A DNA stretch of 64,000 bases from an uncultured Candidatus Rokubacteria bacterium (GTDB taxonomy: Bacteria; Methylomirabilota; Methylomirabilia; Rokubacteriales; CSP1-6). Below, piece by piece: positions 32,768 to 40,103 of this stretch (its first letter is position 1; the number at the start of each line of letters is the position of its first letter). Where the stretch lies: positions 288,001-352,000 of the forward strand of contig CAVVEU010000013.1 of NCBI GenBank assembly GCA_963747235.1, written 5' to 3'. A program made the position numbers and the translations under genes. The notes beneath the pieces were generated by a model. It saw nothing but the letters and a program-made list of their open reading frames with translations, was not told where the DNA came from and did not search any database.

Positions 32768-33408
32768 TCACTCTTTCCTCGGGGCCTCTCCGCGGCTCAG
32801 CCGTACGAGGAACTTGGCGAGGTCCCGCGCCATGTCGTCGAACGACTCCTTCAGGTGGTCCTTGCTGTCGCCGCCGAAGAAGCCCATCTGCGCGACCCTC
32901 CGGTCCGCGCGTCCGTGAAGACCATATCGCTCTGGGCCCGCGCCTTGCCGGCGCCGTAGAGGCCGGCGAAGGCGCGCGCGGCCTGGGAGCCCTCGCCGAG
33001 CCGGGTGATTCGTCCGTCGAGGCGGAGGGCCTTCTCCGCGCCCGGCTGCCACGGAGTCTCGGTCAGGTTGACGACGCGCGTGAAGAGGCCGCTCTCGCGC
33101 ATCCGTCGCACCAGCTCGGAGTGGAAGAAGGCCGACATGGAGGCGGCGGTCCGCCGGTCCCCGTCGTCCTTGACCGCGAGATCCGTGACCGGGAAGAGGC
33201 TGATCGCGATGACCGGGTAGGCCTTGAGATCGAAGCCGCCCGCGATGCCGACGAGCCCGGCGTCCTTGTCCTCCACCGTCGGCAGCAGGGTGCCGGCCCC
33301 GGACGGATGGTCGGCCTTCACCTGATAGGCGCCGTAGCAGCCGGCCAGGAGGAGGCACAGGGCGACACCGAGCACTCCACCGGGGACGCCGAACGATGAG
33401 CGCGCCAT
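32768..33408 (-). CDS. DUF4410-like lipoprotein (frame break near 32900)
   Basis: LLAGC lipobox; G.IT....GS.AAR...G.GAG pattern; C-terminus in another frame. Confidence 0.6.
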
Positions 33409-33563
33409 GGGACGGGCCCTCCCTTCCACGCAGCGTGGAGCACGGAACGGGACGGGGGATCTTGAACGCTGCGGGCGGAGCATGGCCGCCGCGGGGCCCG
33501 CGTGTCAACGGATTCCTGCGCTTATACCGTGATCCGTGACCGGTTCGTTGCGGGCTCCGGTCT

Positions 33564-34504
33564 TCAGGGGTCGGCGAGCGCCTTCGCCAGCGCCGTCACG
33601 ACATGCTCCATGTGGGCGATGTAGTCGGCGGTGCCGGGCACCGCGCCGGGAGACTGCGGGATCACCACGAGCTTGGCTCCGGCCAGTCGGGCCACCGCGG
33701 CGGCGCTCTCGGGGGGATACCAGCTCTCGAGCACGACCACGCGCGCGCCCTGCTCCTTCATCCGTCGGACGAGGCTCGTGAGGTGCTGCGGGGTCGGAGG
33801 GACACCGGGGCGGTCCTCGATGACGCCGAGCTCGATGAGGCCGTACGCGCGGTAGAAGTACGGCCAGCTATCGTGGTAGCTCACCACCCGCGCGCCGCGG
33901 TACGGCGCCAGCAGCTCACGCCAGCGCTGGAACCGGCTCTCGACGCGGGCGAGGAACTCGCGCCGGTTGGCGTCGAGCTTCGGGGCGAGATCCGGCCGCA
34001 GGCGAGCGAGGCCGTCGGCGATGGACGCGGTCACGGTGGGCATCGTGCCGGGGTCGAGGGTGAAGTGCGGATTGCCGGACGGGTGCACGTCGCCGAGCGA
34101 CCGGTCCACGCGGCCGGACGGGATCTTGAGGAGGTCGAGGCCCTGGGAGGCCTCGATCACGCTCGCCGAGCCGCGGAGCAGGCGCGGGTTGCCGCTGCTC
34201 TCGACGATCGGGTCGATCCAGGCGTCCTCCTCGAGACCGTTGCGCACCAGGATCTCGGCCCGCTTGACGAGCAGGATCTGGCTCGGCCGGATCTCGAGGT
34301 CGTGGGGATTCTGGCCGGGGCGGGTCGCGACCTCGACGCGGCCCAGGTCGCCCACGAGGGCGCGCGTGATGGACCAGAGATCGGGCAGGGTGGTGAGCAC
34401 GCGCAGGGCAGGCTCGGCGGCCGGCCCGGACGCCGGGGGGGCGGCGAGAAGGCCCGCGAGCAACGCGATGATGGAGATGAGGCGCAGGGGCGGCGCGGGG
34501 ACAT
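33564..34504 (-). CDS. metal (Zn/Mn/Ni/Co) ABC substrate-binding protein, ZnuA family
   Basis: NPH, NGLEE..W, DVHP.GNPH..LDP, YHDSW.YF, PPTPQHL; ATG 34504 overlaps porin stop but needs a 1-nt shift in the signal peptide. Confidence 0.9.
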
Positions 34505-35931
34505 CAGAAGCGCTCCGTCGGGTGGGCCCCGAGGATGAACGTGCCCTGCAGGAAGAACTCGTTCGCGACGCGCTCCACCGCGCCGGTCCCTTCGGTGTGC
34601 TTGTACTGGGCGCGGAAGCGAAGGAACTCGGACGGCTTGAACTGGAGATAGGGCGAGACGGCCCACTCGCGCCCGCGCTCCACCGCGAGCTCGGTCCAGT
34701 CCCCGCGCACGCCGAAGGCCCAGCGGCGGGTGAGATCGAGCTGCCCGTAGAGGTAGGCGCCCCAGCGGTCGAAGCGCCGGTCCCGCGGGGGCGTGGTGTC
34801 GTCGCCGTCCGTCGTCACCGTGCGCATGGCGTAGAGCGCCTCGCCCGCGATGGTGAAGAGGGGGAAGCCCGAGCCGGGGGCCGCCCACTTGTACTTGGCT
34901 CCCAGGCCGAGGATCGTGGTGCGATGCGCGTCGGTGGCGATGCCGCTCGCCGCCGACAGGTCGATCTGCAGGCCGCCGTGCTCCTCGAGCTCGAGGAATG
35001 TCCGCCAGCGGCCGATGACCAGCGGATCCCGCAGGCTGCCGCGGCCGAACGCCACCTCGTTGTCGCCGTCGAAGACGCCGATCGACAGCTCGTTGTAGAC
35101 CGGCAGCGGCAGCACCCAGAAGGCCTCGACGCCCTTCTCGCCCTCGAGCTGCTCTTCGCCGAAGAAGCGGCTCAGCACGTTCGGCCGATCGATCTGCGGC
35201 AGGTCGTCCTGGTGCACGATGTTCAGCGTGCCGAAGCGGGGCCGCATGACGCCGAGGCGCGCGGTGGTGCCGAGGGGCAGGCTCAGCAGGGTCAGGTTCG
35301 CCTCGTCCACCTCCACGCTGAGGCTCCGGTCGGACGGCTCGAGGCCGGCCGCCTCCTCGCCGGCGGAGAGCCGGACGACCGCGCTGGCATACGGGTCGAC
35401 CCGGCCGAACAGGCCCAGCTCGACTTCCCGCGGGAAGAAGCGGTTCTCGCGCCCGGCGAACGTGCCGTCGCGTCGGCGCTCGCGACTCCGGGAGGTGAAG
35501 TCGGTGACGAAGTCCCCGCTGACCCCGATGTCGAAGAGGAGCGTGCGTCCCGGCTGGGCCAGGGCGAACGGCTGGCGCGGGGCCAGCATCTCGCGCAGGG
35601 ATGGCTCGCCACCGGCCGGGGCGGGGCTGGCGGCGGTGACGGGGACGGTTGCCGCGGGAGTCGGCGCCCCGGCGGACCCGGCCGGCGCCGCCGCGGAGCT
35701 CGGCGCCGGGGTCGCGGTGCGTCGCTGGCCCTCGAGCTGCTCGAGACGGTCGGTCAAGTCGCGCAGGCGCGTCTCGTACTGCTCGCGGATCGAGTCGAGC
35801 TGGCGGCGTACCGCGGTGAGCTCCTGGCGGACCGCGTCCACGTCCTGGGCGTGGGCGGGGCCCGGCAGCGACGTGCCCAGCGACAGCAGCAAGAGCGGGA
35901 GCGGCCAGAAGCCGGCCGTGTGCATGCGCAT
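34504..35931 (-). CDS. outer-membrane porin-like protein typical of metal-uptake loci
   Basis: Signal peptide, coiled coil, REVEL...VDPY, EA.LT..LP, FG..N..H..DLPQ.DRP, SEFLR.R.QY, GAHP..F C-terminus. Confidence 0.8.
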   Translation of the reverse strand: MRMHTAGFWPLPLLLLSLGTSLPGPAHAQDVDAVRQELTAVRRQLDSIREQYETRLRDLTDRLEQLEGQRRTATPAPSSAAAPAGSAGAPTPAATVPVTAASPAPAGGEPSLREMLAPRQPFALAQPGRTLLFDIGVSGDFVTDFTSRSRERRRDGTFAGRENRFFPREVELGLFGRVDPYASAVVRLSAGEEAAGLEPSDRSLSVEVDEANLTLLSLPLGTTARLGVMRPRFGTLNIVHQDDLPQIDRPNVLSRFFGEEQLEGEKGVEAFWVLPLPVYNELSIGVFDGDNEVAFGRGSLRDPLVIGRWRTFLELEEHGGLQIDLSAASGIATDAHRTTILGLGAKYKWAAPGSGFPLFTIAGEALYAMRTVTTDGDDTTPPRDRRFDRWGAYLYGQLDLTRRWAFGVRGDWTELAVERGREWAVSPYLQFKPSEFLRFRAQYKHTEGTGAVERVANEFFLQGTFILGAHPTERF

Positions 35932-36007
35932 GGATGCCCTCCGGAAGCGGAGCGTGAGCTGCCGACGCGGTCCGGGGGGACCGCCGGTTCACGATCAGCG
36001 GGCGCGG

Positions 36008-36289
36008 TCAGGCCGGGGGCGGAGCGCGGGGGGAATCGGGTGATGCCGGGGCCGCGGGCGCGGAGAAGGCCGGGGCCACGTCGTGCCGCTCCCGCGCCGG
36101 GTCGGCCGGCCGCGCATGGCGGGCCAGCGCGGTGGGCACCGCGACGGAGTGGGCATCCTGCTGGAGCGGGCAATCGGGGCTGCAGAATCCGGGGACGCTC
36201 CGGTCCTCGTCGAGCGCGGGCGGAACGCCCGCGACGCCGAGGGCGAGAGCGACGAGCAACAGGAGCGCGGCCCGAGCAAGCGGGTGCAT
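36008..36289 (-). CDS. DUF2946/CruR-like leader protein with signal peptide, CxxxC and C-terminal RAPP motif
   Basis: MHPLARAALLLLVALALGVAG...FCSPDCPLQQDAH...DSPRAPPPA*. Confidence 0.7.
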   Translation of the reverse strand: MHPLARAALLLLVALALGVAGVPPALDEDRSVPGFCSPDCPLQQDAHSVAVPTALARHARPADPARERHDVAPAFSAPAAPASPDSPRAPPPA

Positions 36290-36454
36290 CGGCCGGGCGA
36301 TAGTGGAGGAAGAGGGGCGGCCGGTCAAGAGGCCGCGTGACGCCGCGCGGCAAGCGGGATGCTTGACCTTTGTCCGCGGGCTGCTCTAGGATGCCCCCGC
36401 GTCGTCACGGTGACGCGCGGCGTGCCCTCTCACTGACGAGAAGGAGTCTCGGCC

Positions 36455-37473
36455 ATGAAGCCAAGAGCGATCGTAGCGGTGGGTGCGGCCCTGATGGTCC
36501 TTGCCCTCGGTTCCTCGGCGTTCGCCCAGACCGACTGCAAGACCCTCATGCCGCCGTCGCCCTGGGGCCCGAACGATCAGACGGGCGCCACGAACCGCAT
36601 CACCCCGGCCGTGACGAAGGCCGCCGCCGCCGAGATCAAGGACGGCAAGGTCATCGCGATGTCCTACCCGCTGACCGACGGCATCCCGCTCTTCGGCAGC
36701 CGCTTCACCAAGACGATCCTGACCGCCACGACGCTCGCGCCCGGCGCCGCGCTCGGCGAGAACCAGCTCACCTACATGGAAGACACCTGGCTCAGCCAGA
36801 GCCACGTGGGCACGCACCTGGACGGGCTCGGGCACATCGGACGGAAGGATTGCTACTTCAACCAGACGCCGATGGGCAAGTACATCACCCAGAACAACAT
36901 GACCCGGCTCGGCATCGAGAACCTCAAGCCCTTCGCGACCCGGGGCGTGCTCGTGGACATGGTCAAGGTGTACCAGCAGGCCAACAAGTTCAAGGGCAAC
37001 GCCGCGTGCAAGAAGCCGTGCCTCGAGAAGGGCACGGTGATCACCGCCGCCGACATCCAGGCCGGGCTCAAGATGTACAACGTGACCCTGCGCGAGGGCG
37101 ACATCGTGATCATCCACACCGGCTGGGGCGATCTCTTCGAGCAGTTCCCGGCCCAGAACGCGCTCTACAACTCGGGCGAGCCGGGCATCGGCAAGGACGC
37201 GGCGACGTGGCTCATCTCGCAGAAGGTCGTCGCGGTCGGCAACGACACGTGGGGCGGTCGAGGTCATCCCGGGCGAGAACCCGAAGGAGGCCTTCATCGT
37301 CCACAACATGCTCCTCACCGACAACGGCATCCACATCATCGAGAACGTGCGCACGGACCTGATGGCGGCCGAGGCCGCCGCGACGCGGCCGGGCCACGTT
37401 CTTCTTCAGCATGACGGTGCCGAAGGGCGTCGGCATGACCGGCAACTTCGTCGGCATCGAGGGGATCCGCTAG
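36455..37473 (+). CDS. secreted cyclase-family (kynurenine formamidase-like) hydrolase; frameshifts near 37255-37460
   Basis: Signal peptide, WGP.DQ.GA.N, HVGTHLDG, RGVLVD, HTGW, PGIG, G.HIIEN. Confidence 0.85.
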
Positions 37474-37496
37474 TCTCCGAGGTCGGTCCCGCTCTC

Positions 37497-38546
37497 GTGA
37501 CGCATCGGGCGCCGGCGTCCTCTCCACGGGGACGCCGGCGCTCGTGTCTCCAGCGCTGGACGGCGGCCGTCGCTCGGCGCGGTGATGCCTCACGGCGGGC
37601 TCGCTCCCGCCGCCGCCCAGCGGACGTACGTCGTGGCGTTCGCGAACTTCACGGACGAGCCGGGGGTGACGATCGAGGGGACGGGCTTCACCGGGCGCGA
37701 GATCCGGGAGAGCTTCGTGCTCGCCTCTCGGGTCCATCCGGTCGAGATGGTCTACTACGACAACCAGCGGGACGACGCGCGCGCCCTCGCCAACGCGGAG
37801 GCCGCGATCGCCCGCAAGGTGGATCTCTACATCCAGTACCATCGCGGGCGCCGCCAGCGCGGCGGTGGGCGAGAAGCTCCGGGCGGCCGGGATCAAGGTC
37901 CTCGCGCTGAACTACCCGTTCCCGGACGCGCCGCTCTACACCGCCGACAACCTCGCCGCCGGTCGGATCGCGGGCGAGGCGCTGGCCCAGTTCGCCTGCG
38001 CGCCTGGCGCGCCCAGCCGATGGCGGCGGCGGTCGTCGGCAATGTCAGCGCGGCCGAGGACCGGGTGCCGGAGCGGGTACAGGGCGTGACCCAGGCCCTG
38101 GGGCAGTCTGCTTCCGGCGGTGCGGGTCGACCACACTCGACACGAAGGGCAACCCGGCCCAGGTCGCGCCGCTGCTGGGGAAGTTCATCGCCGCGCATCC
38201 GACCGGCAAGCTGCTCCTGGCCGCCACCGACGACGCGACCGCGCTGGCGCTGAAGGCCGCGGTCGAGAGCGCCGGACGCGTCCACGACACCGCGATCGTG
38301 AGCCACGGCGTGGACCGGAGCATCCACGGCGGCATGAACGATCGCAAGGAGATCGATCCGAGCAACCGGGGCAGCATCCTCGTCGGCTCGGTCGCGTTCT
38401 TCCTCGATCGCTACGGGTACGAGGTGCTGCCGCTCGCGATGCGGATGCTGCGGGGGGAGGCGGTGCCGCCGCGCGTGACCACCCGGCACGTGCTCGTCAC
38501 CGCGGCGAATGTCTTCGTCGAGTATCCGCCCTACGACATGAACTGA
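37497..38546 (+). CDS. type I periplasmic (sugar-type) binding protein, several frameshifts; start uncertain
   Basis: YDNQ.D...ALANA, ADN..AGRIAGE.L, A.DD.TA, SVAFF...YG in successive frames. Confidence 0.7.
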
Positions 38547-38553
38547 GGGCAGG

Positions 38554-39802
38554 TCAGCGGGGGGGGCGCGGCGATGAAGAGCCCTTCGGGCCCTTCGCCG
38601 GTGGCGGTGGGGGCCACCGCGAAGGTCACGTGGCCGGGGGCGCTCACGCTGACCACCGGATAGAGCGTGAGGGTCGTGATGCGGTCGCCACCCGGCAAGG
38701 CGTCACCGATCGCGACGACCTGCGCGAGGCCGGCGCCGTCGGCGATCAGGATCGCCATCGGGCTCGGTCCGCCCTCGATGGAGGCGGCGAAGGCGATGGC
38801 GCCGCGCGGGCTGACCGCGGGCCACAGGCCGAAGTGCTCGATGGTCCCGCCGCCGGGCGCGGCGTCGCCCAGGCGCGAGACGGCGCGCGCGCGGCCGTCC
38901 TCGATCGCGAAGATCGCCGCCGCGACCGGAGCGAACTTGAGCATGCCGTGGAAGGCGATGACGCCCGCGTCGTTGAAGCCGATGCGCTCCGAGAACTTGG
39001 CGAAGATGCCGCCGAGGGGCGTCTCCTCTCCGGCGCCCACCACCATCTGGATCCGCTCGCCGCGCGCGACGAAGAGGCCGCCGGGCACCGCCTTGCCGTC
39101 GACGACCGCGGCGAAGGCCACCGCGCCGCGCGCGTTGATCACCGGAGGCCCGAACGCGGCGAAGGTGCCGCCCGGCGGGCGCGGGATCGCCCTGGGCCAC
39201 GACCTTGCGCAGGGTGCCGCCCGCGCTGAGGAGAATCGCGTCGAGCGGACTCGCGGCCCCGACGGATCGTCGCGAGGAACACGATGTCGCCGCGGGCGTT
39301 GACGGCGGGCGAGTCGAGCCCCGCGAGCACGCTCGACGGCATGCCCGGGGCCGCGGTGCCGGTGAGGGCGACCGGGCGGAGGCGGCCGGCGGACCAGGAG
39401 AAGATGCCCTCCACCGCCTTGCCGCCTGCCATCGCGGCCGCGAAGGCCACGAGGCCGCCGTCGCTCAAGGCCGGGGTCGGGTGCTTGCCGAACCCGAGAG
39501 GCGCCCGATGCCGGGCACCCGGTCGCCTTCCCGGGCCACCGCGAGGATCCGCTCGCCGCGCCGGAGGAAGATGCCTTCGTCGGCCGTCGCCCCGGACGAG
39601 CCGCGCGAAGAACGCGACCTCGCCGCGGGCGTTGACCGGGGCGATCACCGGGAAGGTTCTCCTGGCCGAACCGGTCGAAGGTGCCGCCGCCCGGCGCGGC
39701 GTCACCGACACGGGCGACCACGCGGAGCGTCGGAGCATCGGCGCCCTGGGCGGAGAGCGCGAAGGCGGACGCGACGAGCGCCAGGAGCGCGACACCGAGC
39801 AT
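38554..39802 (-). CDS. secreted NxxGxxAF tandem-repeat (beta-propeller-like) protein, frameshifted
   Basis: Repeats PVNARGEVAF, AVNARGDIVF, VINARGAVAF, FNDAGVIAF, GDAAPGGGTF. Confidence 0.7.
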
Positions 39803-39861
39803 CGACCAGGACTGGCGGGCGGCATACGCAGGGAGTATAGGAAGGTCGGGATGGCGCCGCA

Positions 39862-40103
39862 ATGAGCGCCTCGAGTCGCGGGATCGTGATCGGTCTCGGG
39901 CTGCTCGCGATCGCCGCGCGATCGCGGCCGCCGCCGAGGCGCCGGCCACGAGGGGGGCGTGCTACTGCCGGGCCGGCGCGGCGCTCCATTGCACCGCGGA
40001 TCTCAGCGAGCCGGACTGCCGCCGGCAGTGTGACGAGGCGCTGTGCGACGACTGGTTCTGGAAGGAACGACTGCCCTGCTGGAACTGGGGCTACGGAGGC
40101 TGA
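39862..40103 (+). CDS. small secreted Cys/Trp-rich protein (frameshift near 39920)
   Basis: Signal-like MSASSRGIVIGLGLLAIAA then ACYCR...HC...DCRRQC...LCDDWFWKERLPCWNWGYGG. Confidence 0.5.

Follow-up and report, generated by a model that had tools for sequence, protein, structure and literature searches.

A candidate metal-sensing ribosome-arrest leader ahead of a porin-like and ZnuA-like gene pair in a Rokubacteria genome

The stretch of DNA considered here, which as a whole we call the window, comprises 64,000 nucleotides (nt) from an uncultured Candidatus Rokubacteria bacterium of the phylum Methylomirabilota (assembly GCA_963747235.1, contig CAVVEU010000013.1, positions 288,001 to 352,000 of the forward strand), and our subject is a small open reading frame (ORF) in it that precedes a porin-like and a ZnuA-like gene. 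All of the parts of this arrangement, including two hairpins, lie on the minus strand of the window. The leader ORF (36289..36008, with its ATG at 36289 and its TGA at 36010..36008) encodes 93 amino acids (aa) plus the stop. It is followed by a spacer of 76 nt (36007..35932) between the leader stop and the start codon of the porin-like gene (35931..34504, ATG at 35931, 475 aa), and then by the ZnuA-like ORF (PF01297, E 5.7e-46), which spans 34463..33564 as the open frame stands. The initial annotation of this DNA had described, 76 nt before the porin-like gene, a 93-aa ORF with a signal peptide, the cysteine pair C36-x3-C40, H47 and the Arg-Ala-Pro-Pro (RAPP) motif R88APP91 with two residues behind it, and all of this is present as claimed, as are both spacer hairpins, GCGGUCC-CCCC-GGACCGC and CUCCG-CUUC-CGGAG. 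Its comparison of this exported Cys leader, which ends in RAPP and stands in cis ahead of the porin and ZnuA-like genes, with the known leaders CruR and CutF also agrees with what we find among related sequences. We regard the 93-aa ORF as probably a cis-acting, metal-sensing ribosome-arrest leader of the CruR/CutF kind.

The leader protein begins with MHPLARAALLLLVALALGVAG followed by VPPALDEDRSVPGFCSPDCPLQQDAHS and ends in PDSPRAPPPA, directly before the stop; in order, it consists of the signal-peptide-like MHPLARAALLLLVALALGVAG, the segment VPPALDEDRSVPGFCSPDCPLQQDAHSV, an Ala/Pro-rich stretch and the Pro-rich end. The predicted signal peptide (aa 1-21, codons 36289..36227) was judged by eye from Arg6, a hydrophobic run and GVAG. 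The putative sensor segment PPALDEDRSVPGFCSPDCPLQQDAHSV occupies aa 23-49 (36223..36143), with C36 encoded at 36184..36182 and C40 at 36172..36170, while the candidate arrest motif R88 A89 P90 P91 lies at 36028..36017 and has only P92, A93 and the stop behind it. A word-seeded database search returned 114 relatives of 51-163 aa, the named ones all called hypothetical and one of them coming from a Methylomirabilota record. When the window leader is aligned with 37 relatives hand-picked across the score range (alignment A1), the residues P23, D27, E28, D29, R30, G34, C36, S37, P38, C40, L42, Q43 and R88 are invariant and H47 is kept in at least 90% of the rows. The signal peptide and the terminal D-x-P-R-A-P-P are conserved as well, whereas the middle segment is variable, with aa 55-82 changing freely. 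The A1 profile finds the leader as a single copy in the window's own genome. Among 251 phylum genomes, 20 have a copy without stops, and the window's genus is represented by 20 further genomes, of which 10 have one, although many of these genomes are incomplete; a search of 1.84 billion representative proteins with the leader profile gave only 22 clusters, all of one narrow family. Open frames of the leader's length are common in G+C-rich DNA and overlapping chance ORFs are abundant on both strands of the region, as one would have it if the leader were itself a chance open frame, but the 114 relatives, the stop-free copies in 20 of 251 genomes and the conservation of amino acids alongside synonymous variation refute that supposition, to which we give practically no credence.

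We have also read 100 loci directly as DNA (the window, 19 genomes and 80 metagenome contigs), and the leader matched our reading pattern in 97 of them; among the other three, L027 has FCSPGC with a normal tail and two loci end too early. The metagenome contigs were found with the peptide patterns G[FY]CSPDC[PL]L and [IVL]PP[AGT][LF]DEDR as seeds, whereas the tail was not seeded. The 97 tails are PRAPP (91 leaders), PRGPP (2), SRAPP (2), CRPPP (1, in L060) and none at all in one truncated frame. Conservation of RAPP and of the cysteines, which had been proposed as a check on the arrest idea, is thus what is seen: RAPP or RGPP in 95 of 97 leaders and CxxxC, in the form C-S-P/A-D-C, in 96, the Cys motif being partly seeded, with Y-S-E-D-C in the remaining one. 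Behind RAPP or RGPP come two residues in 90 leaders and three in 5 (some members of a distant branch with Tyr for the first Cys also have three). The distance between the second Cys and the Arg is similarly uniform, 47 residues in 37 leaders, 48 in 53 and 49 in 4; in L063 the linker is shortened to 31. Among 72 distinct sequences, the P-R-A-P-P codons use all of the synonymous forms, the residue after RAPP can be any of at least nine amino acids and the stop codon any of the three. Because these codons vary synonymously while the residues stay, selection acts on the peptide and not on the RNA, and the 93-aa ORF is on this evidence a genuine gene whose product is conserved.

An export signal and an unvarying segment of acidic, Cys and His residues, encoded in an operon shared with a metal-binding protein, could also belong to a small secreted metal-binding protein, that is, a periplasmic chaperone or buffer acting in trans whose RAPP is only a slow or structural tail. 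We think this unlikely: the linker of roughly 30 residues that joins the metal segment to the tail is kept in length but not in sequence, RAPP stands exactly two residues from the stop in nearly all leaders (the 90 of 97 above), and two unrelated cargoes are found behind the same leader. Moreover, RAPP is reported to be selected against in ordinary proteins but to accumulate at the C-terminal ends of small exported upstream ORFs (PMC12992588), and neither CutF nor CruR was detectable as a stable product (PMC9973294, PMC9426467). The leader as a RiPP (ribosomally synthesized and post-translationally modified peptide) or metallophore precursor was dropped, there being no maturation genes in the unit.

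The two cargoes can be observed directly: the same leader, promoter and spacer precede either the porin and ZnuA pair or a TonB-dependent receptor with ExbBD. The receptor follows the leader in 52 of the 100 loci and the porin-like 475-aa gene in 37; one locus (L040) continues into unrelated sequence, seven have too little downstream DNA, and the other three are those with the leader outside the pattern. ZnuA is seen in 28 of the 37 porin loci and the others end too early to tell, while the receptor has CarboxypepD_reg, Plug and barrel domains and is followed by ExbB, ExbD and a TonB-sized ORF. The supposition of a non-TonB target therefore holds for the window, which has the porin, but not for the family, half of whose loci place the leader before a TonB-dependent receptor, as is the case with CruR. 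The Cys-RAPP spacing goes with the cargo, being 47 in 33 of the 37 porin loci and 48 in 48 of the 52 receptor loci. The nature of these cargoes bears on another explanation, that the leader is a secretion or redox monitor rather than a metal sensor, released by Sec pulling force or by a DsbA-driven C36-C40 disulfide, which tunes outer-membrane protein synthesis to the capacity for export or oxidative folding. RAPP arrest peptides did first come to light in front of sec/yidC genes, DsbA and thioredoxin genes are likewise among those preceded by RAPP upstream ORFs (PMC12992588), and the CutF preprint proposes disulfide formation as the releasing force (10.1101/2025.02.05.636593). However, both cargoes are metal-uptake components and not Sec, YidC or Dsb factors, and the distant members with one Cys and added His residues fit metal ligands better than an obligatory disulfide; a monitor of this sort seems to us quite improbable here.

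Neither Pfam nor NCBIfam has a family match for the 475-aa protein or for the leader. The AlphaFold2 model of the former (alignment of 30 sequences) is of moderate confidence, with a predicted local distance difference test score of 68.8 and a predicted template modelling (TM) score of 0.62; it has a signal peptide, a long helix or coiled coil (about aa 31-70), a disordered Ala/Pro linker and a beta-barrel of 16 strands. The best 49 of 225 Foldseek matches (E <= 0.001) are almost all porins or other outer-membrane channels (E 4e-10 to 7e-8), among them OprP 2o4v (E 4e-10), Vibrio OmpT 6ehe (TM 0.69 by target), BpsOmp38 and DcaP 6eus, so that a porin is supported, at the level of fold, by the model. 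The modelled barrel has the same 16 strands as DcaP of Acinetobacter baumannii and OprP/OprO of Pseudomonas, although the sequence identity to these is only 8-12% and the protein matches no Pfam porin family. DcaP, too, has an N-terminal periplasmic coiled coil.

The closest solved relatives of the ZnuA-like protein are Zn-specific ZnuA structures. Its histidines in 'npHd', 'npHf' and 'syHd' align with three His of Synechocystis ZnuA 2ov1, which we take to be the zinc ligands there, and it is without a His-rich loop; its scores fall below the cut-offs of the NCBIfam equivalogs AztC and ZnuA. As the initial annotation had said, there is no permease among the ORFs of the unit: neither a permease nor an ATPase of the ATP-binding cassette (ABC) type (ZnuB, ZnuC) is adjacent, and the ABC-3 genes, with a further ZnuA, are on another contig of the genome. 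The start of the gene deserves comment. In relatives, the ZnuA-like gene begins within the porin stop (TGATG), and its first codons specify an ordinary signal peptide, whereas in the window the overlapping ATG (34504..34502) is out of frame with the body of the ZnuA-like gene, the first canonical in-frame start is TTG 34463, which leaves a poor signal peptide, and an in-frame CTG lies at 34487..34485. When four soil runs were compared, the contigs of close relatives in two of them had one extra C behind 34489; the window thus has either a true frameshift or an assembly error in the C run.

The general kind of leader to which we compare this family is already in print. CruR (Bp2923 of Bordetella pertussis), the DUF2946 prototype, has CXXC and a RAPP three residues from its end, with 45 residues between the two motifs, a distance from which more than 2000 proteins deviate by no more than 1-2. 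The gene behind it encodes a TonB-dependent transporter; copper relieves the arrest, whereupon Rho terminates in the 162-nt spacer (PMC9426467). The CruR arrest has been toeprinted, with the Pro-Pro codons in the P and A sites (PMC12992588). CutF of Rhodobacter capsulatus, which its authors place in DUF2946 (PMC9973294), has a Sec signal, CxxxC, a C-terminal PPP and a short spacer, and here copper prolongs the stalling, so that a stem-loop over the cutO Shine-Dalgarno (SD) sequence melts (PMC9973294; bioRxiv 10.1101/2025.02.05.636593). Finally, a survey of 52,895 genomes found RAPP/RGPP to be enriched at the C-termini of small exported upstream ORFs, those before TonB receptors nearly all having signal peptides, and the downstream genes it names are TonB receptors, YcnI, PCuAC, PepSY, DsbA and thioredoxin (PMC12992588).

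With CruR the window leader shares its being a small upstream ORF with a predicted signal peptide, a Cys motif and a RAPP 2-3 residues from the C-terminus, a similar Cys-RAPP distance (about 45 in CruR, 47-49 here) and an outer-membrane importer downstream on the same strand, and half of the leader family, moreover, precedes a TonB-dependent receptor. It differs in having CxxxC in place of CXXC, a spacer of 72-91 nt in the family against 162, a TonB-independent porin with a ZnuA-like protein as cargo, and a metal that is probably not copper; in addition, CruR works without its signal peptide, whereas here the predicted signal peptide is strongly conserved. The likeness to CutF lies in the Sec signal (by eye), CxxxC, the Pro-rich C-terminus, a spacer of less than 100 nt and, in the window, a predicted stem-loop over the SD, and the leader falls within all four of the published CutF-like filters (93 aa, Pro-Pro at 90-91 of 93, a 76-nt spacer, a signal peptide by eye). 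The CxxxC spacing, which had been put forward as a departure from the known leaders, is consequently none, since CutF already has it (PMC9973294). The differences from CutF are RAPP in place of PPP, an SD stem-loop that is not conserved in the family, and cargo for uptake instead of a detoxifying multicopper oxidase, which makes the opposite polarity likely. The RAPP/RGPP upstream ORFs of the survey form a class in which the leader has its place, with the same motif near the C-terminus, the signal peptide and metal-homeostasis genes downstream, but porins and ZnuA-type proteins are not among the downstream genes named in the parts of it available to us (PMC12992588). Unlike the Sec/YidC monitors ApdA and ApdP, our leaders have no gene for a protein-localisation factor downstream, but instead a porin with ZnuA or a receptor with ExbBD. 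In the literature that we searched, no paper mentions both ZnuA and an arrest peptide, and three supplementary files of PMC9973294 have no Methylomirabilota, Rokubacteria, ZnuA or porin, the full list (File S1) lying outside these three.

The spacer, 72-91 nt long before both cargoes in the 72 distinct sequences, starts with 22 nt that are C-rich and G-poor (mean C 0.49, mean G 0.24). Its most constant feature is hairpin 1, GCGGUCC-CCCC-GGACCGC (35984..35967), which begins 21-24 nt after the leader stop in most sequences; a GCGG..CCGC hairpin is found in 58 of 75 distinct sequences, and in the majority of the remaining 17 its position is taken by another hairpin. Covariation was scored on 31 sequences with a 4-nt loop and at least six pairs, a choice by feature that inflates the paired percentage, and in this subset 98% of 200 cells pair and three of the seven pairs show double substitutions, with 10 sequences having U-A for C-G. 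The score of 0.226 exceeds that of shuffles (0.100 +/- 0.014, with 0 of 500 reaching it) and of slid partners (at most 0.104), and for this reason we take hairpin 1, on comparative grounds, to be a conserved RNA structure with compensatory changes. RNAalifold gave no consensus structure on the 75-sequence MAFFT alignment (A2), in which the loops are misaligned, so that the hairpin was anchored by hand; a mutual-information scan of A2 gave no Watson-Crick covarying long-range pair, its top pairs being the split between porin and receptor loci. On the 3' side of hairpin 1 there is a motif AGCUCAC (35960..35954) that is conserved before both cargoes (A2, A5). It stands about 22-28 nt before the start codon and in some sequences pairs with GAGCUG or GCUG on the 5' side of the hairpin. 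In the metagenome contig L040 the spacer is lost about 25 nt past the stop of the leader, immediately ahead of hairpin 1, where unrelated sequence with a lower G+C content takes over. The 711 nt that remain hold neither a porin nor a receptor gene, and the cause may be an insertion, a rearrangement or chimerism of the contig.

Hairpin 2, CUCCG-CUUC-CGGAG (35952..35939), overlaps the porin SD, GGAGGG (35942..35937), and had been thought to bury it. It proves to be lineage-specific, being present only in the near relatives of the window. It does appear in the minimum-energy fold of the spacer alone, but is absent when 53 nt of the leader 3' end are included, and in the window with longer context its pairing probability is 0.02. 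Its competitor in the window is a pairing of the SD with the leader's Pro codons. The folding energies of the window spacer are no better than those of shuffles (z 0.11 and 1.15). Across the 72 sequences the SD is nonetheless predicted to be paired, with a probability of 0.84 against 0.81 when the upstream sequence is shuffled; most of this pairing is to the leader 3' end (0.43-0.46) and to the 25 nt with which the spacer begins (0.18-0.19). Given that shuffled upstream sequence yields nearly the same pairing, SD masking looks like a property of the C-rich composition rather than an evident selected structure. SD sequestration, not being above its composition-matched control, is kept only as one of two possible outputs.

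Upstream of the leader, the conservation among related loci points to a promoter with the -35 sequence TTGACC (36328..36323) and the -10 sequence CACTAT (36305..36300), the latter 10 nt before the ATG. Of 64 distinct upstream regions, 58 show the corresponding pattern, TTGAyn-N17-CAC(T/C)AT-N8-10-ATG, 50 of them with the 10-nt distance, although a stricter consensus promoter scan did not list the leader promoter, the -10 of which matches at 3 of 6 positions. On this basis the leader mRNA would be leaderless or nearly so, with a start predicted 3-4 nt before the ATG, and this would explain why the leader is without an SD of its own. The TTG at 36328, which gene callers sometimes take as an alternative start of the leader, is unlikely to be one, as the inferred -35 begins with these three bases. 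About 10 nt upstream of the -35 (36331..36345, minus strand) there is a GCGTCAC motif that is conserved in many loci. This conserved promoter and upstream GCGTCA(C) motif, together with an SD masking that does not go beyond composition, could be taken to mean that regulation is purely transcriptional, via a factor binding the GCGUCAC-type motif, and that the leader represents mere translation through a structured 5' region for the sake of constitutive coupling or mRNA stabilisation. That would leave the peptide-level RAPP, the Cys segment and the fixed ruler, all with free synonymous change, unexplained, and we hold it to be very unlikely.

If the leader is instead an arrest peptide of the CruR/CutF kind, its action might be pictured as follows; arrest, export, metal binding, metal identity, polarity and the output step are all things that we only infer. 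The conserved promoter would yield a nearly leaderless leader mRNA, the signal peptide would engage SecYEG, and the nascent chain would enter the Sec translocon. The ribosome would then pause at R88-A89-P90-P91, its P site occupied by Pro90 and its A site by Pro91. Between there and Cys40, 47 residues would span the exit tunnel and the translocon, so that the Asp/Glu-Cys-x3-Cys-His segment would be at the periplasmic mouth, where it could meet the metal, and the metal occupancy of this sensor segment would set the duration of the arrest. Since two codons and the stop come after the one in the A site, an arrested ribosome, which reaches about 15 nt forward of the first base in its P site, would end at the first base of the spacer; the strictness of the RAPP-to-stop distance would be explained if the ribosome's front edge has to meet the start of the spacer. 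A ribosome parked there would determine how much porin is made, and with it the ZnuA-like protein, whose translation is coupled to that of the porin, either by holding the C-rich leader end and spacer start away from the SD, as in CutF, or by holding Rho off the C-rich RNA, as in CruR. The polarity would perhaps be that of CruR, with arrest and expression when the metal is scarce and release and shut-off when it is bound. We prefer this polarity because the cargo is for uptake; a substrate-induced design is a conceivable alternative.

Several observations weigh against this scheme. The predicted masking of the SD is not beyond composition (0.838 native against 0.811 with the upstream sequence shuffled): only 45 of the 72 sequences lie above their own shuffles, and per sequence a mean of 0.453 of the shuffles reach the native SD pairing. 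In the model, masking the footprint of a stalled ribosome barely frees the SD, which goes from 0.86 to 0.82 in porin loci and from 0.82 to 0.70 in receptor loci. For the Rho alternative, on the other hand, a 76-nt spacer is short for a loading site. As CSPDC and DEDR were motifs that seeded the metagenome scan, their conservation in its 80 loci is in part a product of the search itself, and distant members (L034, P0252, P0255) have Tyr for the first Cys and an HxHD segment upstream of it, implying that the ligand set of the leaders is not fixed. Then there is the question of kinship. The window leader matches no Pfam family at E <= 10, DUF2946 included; PF11162 matches 5 of 38 members of the leader family, weakly, with a best E of 0.068. 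An hhalign comparison of A1 with 16 PF11162-labelled proteins of the same phylum (A4) gave a probability of 0.65% and E 0.087, a weak test, both alignments being shallow and of low complexity.

The only segment aligned in that comparison was the metal segment, G-x4-C-P-x7-H, and the PF11162-labelled family of the phylum has 48 residues between its Cys and RAPP, a ruler equal to that of our leaders. A PF11162 scan of the 251 phylum genomes gave one match over the cut-off, with many of the 20 others (E <= 0.01) having internal stops; the genome of the window has none. Nor did the search among 1.84 billion representative proteins, made with the leader profile, bridge the leader family to DUF2946; in the ESM Atlas the nearest named clusters are 'DUF2946' (0.91-0.92), which is a lead only. 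By architecture the leader is best described as a type that would work like CruR and CutF; its sequence does not place it in DUF2946, and common descent with CruR is no more than possible. Among the phylum's small ORFs there is also a second family ending in RAPP (L116, L117, L118, L121; proteins P0256-P0375), only partly labelled PF11162, which has IHSVHHLP, a His-rich stretch and a single Cys-Pro, then 48 residues, G-R-A-P-P and about eight more residues.

Concerning the metal, zinc is our best guess, because of the ZnuA-like binding protein with its three histidines and of the distant leader members with Tyr and HxHD; the sequence would be compatible with copper as well. Over the nickel or cobalt that the initial annotation had also proposed, zinc is favoured only by the three-His site of the binding protein. 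A bolder version, which we put forward tentatively and think rather doubtful, is that of a zinc-responsive arrest switch, the first of its kind, with a Cys2-His-Asp site at the SecY mouth, a ruler of 47-48 residues, and a portable promoter-leader-spacer module, hairpin and start codon included, that has been recombined before two uptake routes at a single chromosomal site. Were this so, zinc in the periplasm would be signalled to the ribosome by the very peptide that it is making for export. One of the two alternative routes would be a coiled-coil porin that needs no TonB, accompanied by an orphan ZnuA-type protein; the other would be a TonB-dependent receptor that brings along an ExbBD-TonB of its own.

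The principle itself, that of a CruR/CutF-type RAPP leader, is not new, and surveys already list thousands of such upstream ORFs. What is new is a leader sequence family outside the current Pfam model and a cargo, the coiled-coil porin with an orphan zinc-type binding protein, that we have not found described. Metal-sensing arrest peptides are a recently described way to read out the periplasm without a membrane receptor, and to our knowledge only two have been studied at the bench, both for copper. With the present family, the principle would reach a soil phylum of which little is known, sequences that the Pfam model misses, a TonB-independent porin with an orphan binding protein and, probably, zinc. 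The natural swap of cargo behind a constant leader and spacer offers a ready comparison for the role of the spacer, and the 47-49-residue ruler, with its two codons before the stop, gives a testable geometry in which ligand binding across the membrane would be coupled to the peptidyl-transferase centre.

Around this unit a few further features may be recorded. Downstream, 80 nt 3' of the ZnuA-like gene, there is a DUF4410 lipoprotein-like gene (33483..32851, minus strand; PF14366, E 6e-7) that may be the last gene of the unit; such a gene comes after ZnuA in 4 of the 28 loci showing ZnuA, and many loci end earlier. No terminator-like site was found in 35850..36480. On the upstream side, a near-palindrome, GCGCGTCAC-C-GTGACGACGC, lies at 36398..36418 (minus strand) in the leader region of the divergent gene, and both it and the GCGTCAC motif may be operator sites of some regulator. 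The divergent gene encodes a cyclase and has a promoter-like sequence, TTGACC-18-TAGGAT (36363..36392, plus strand), the only match in the region (mean of shuffles 0.0). This cyclase gene (PF04199), which bears a signal peptide, and a DUF7453 gene adjoin the porin-type module of the window (36455..39949), in divergent orientation, and the same two neighbours are found, co-directional, at a receptor-type locus (L143, G133:C18:69000-79000). Both types of cargo also occur within the window's genus; with the same neighbours beside each, the porin and receptor cassettes therefore look, from their sequence surroundings, like alternatives at one chromosomal place.

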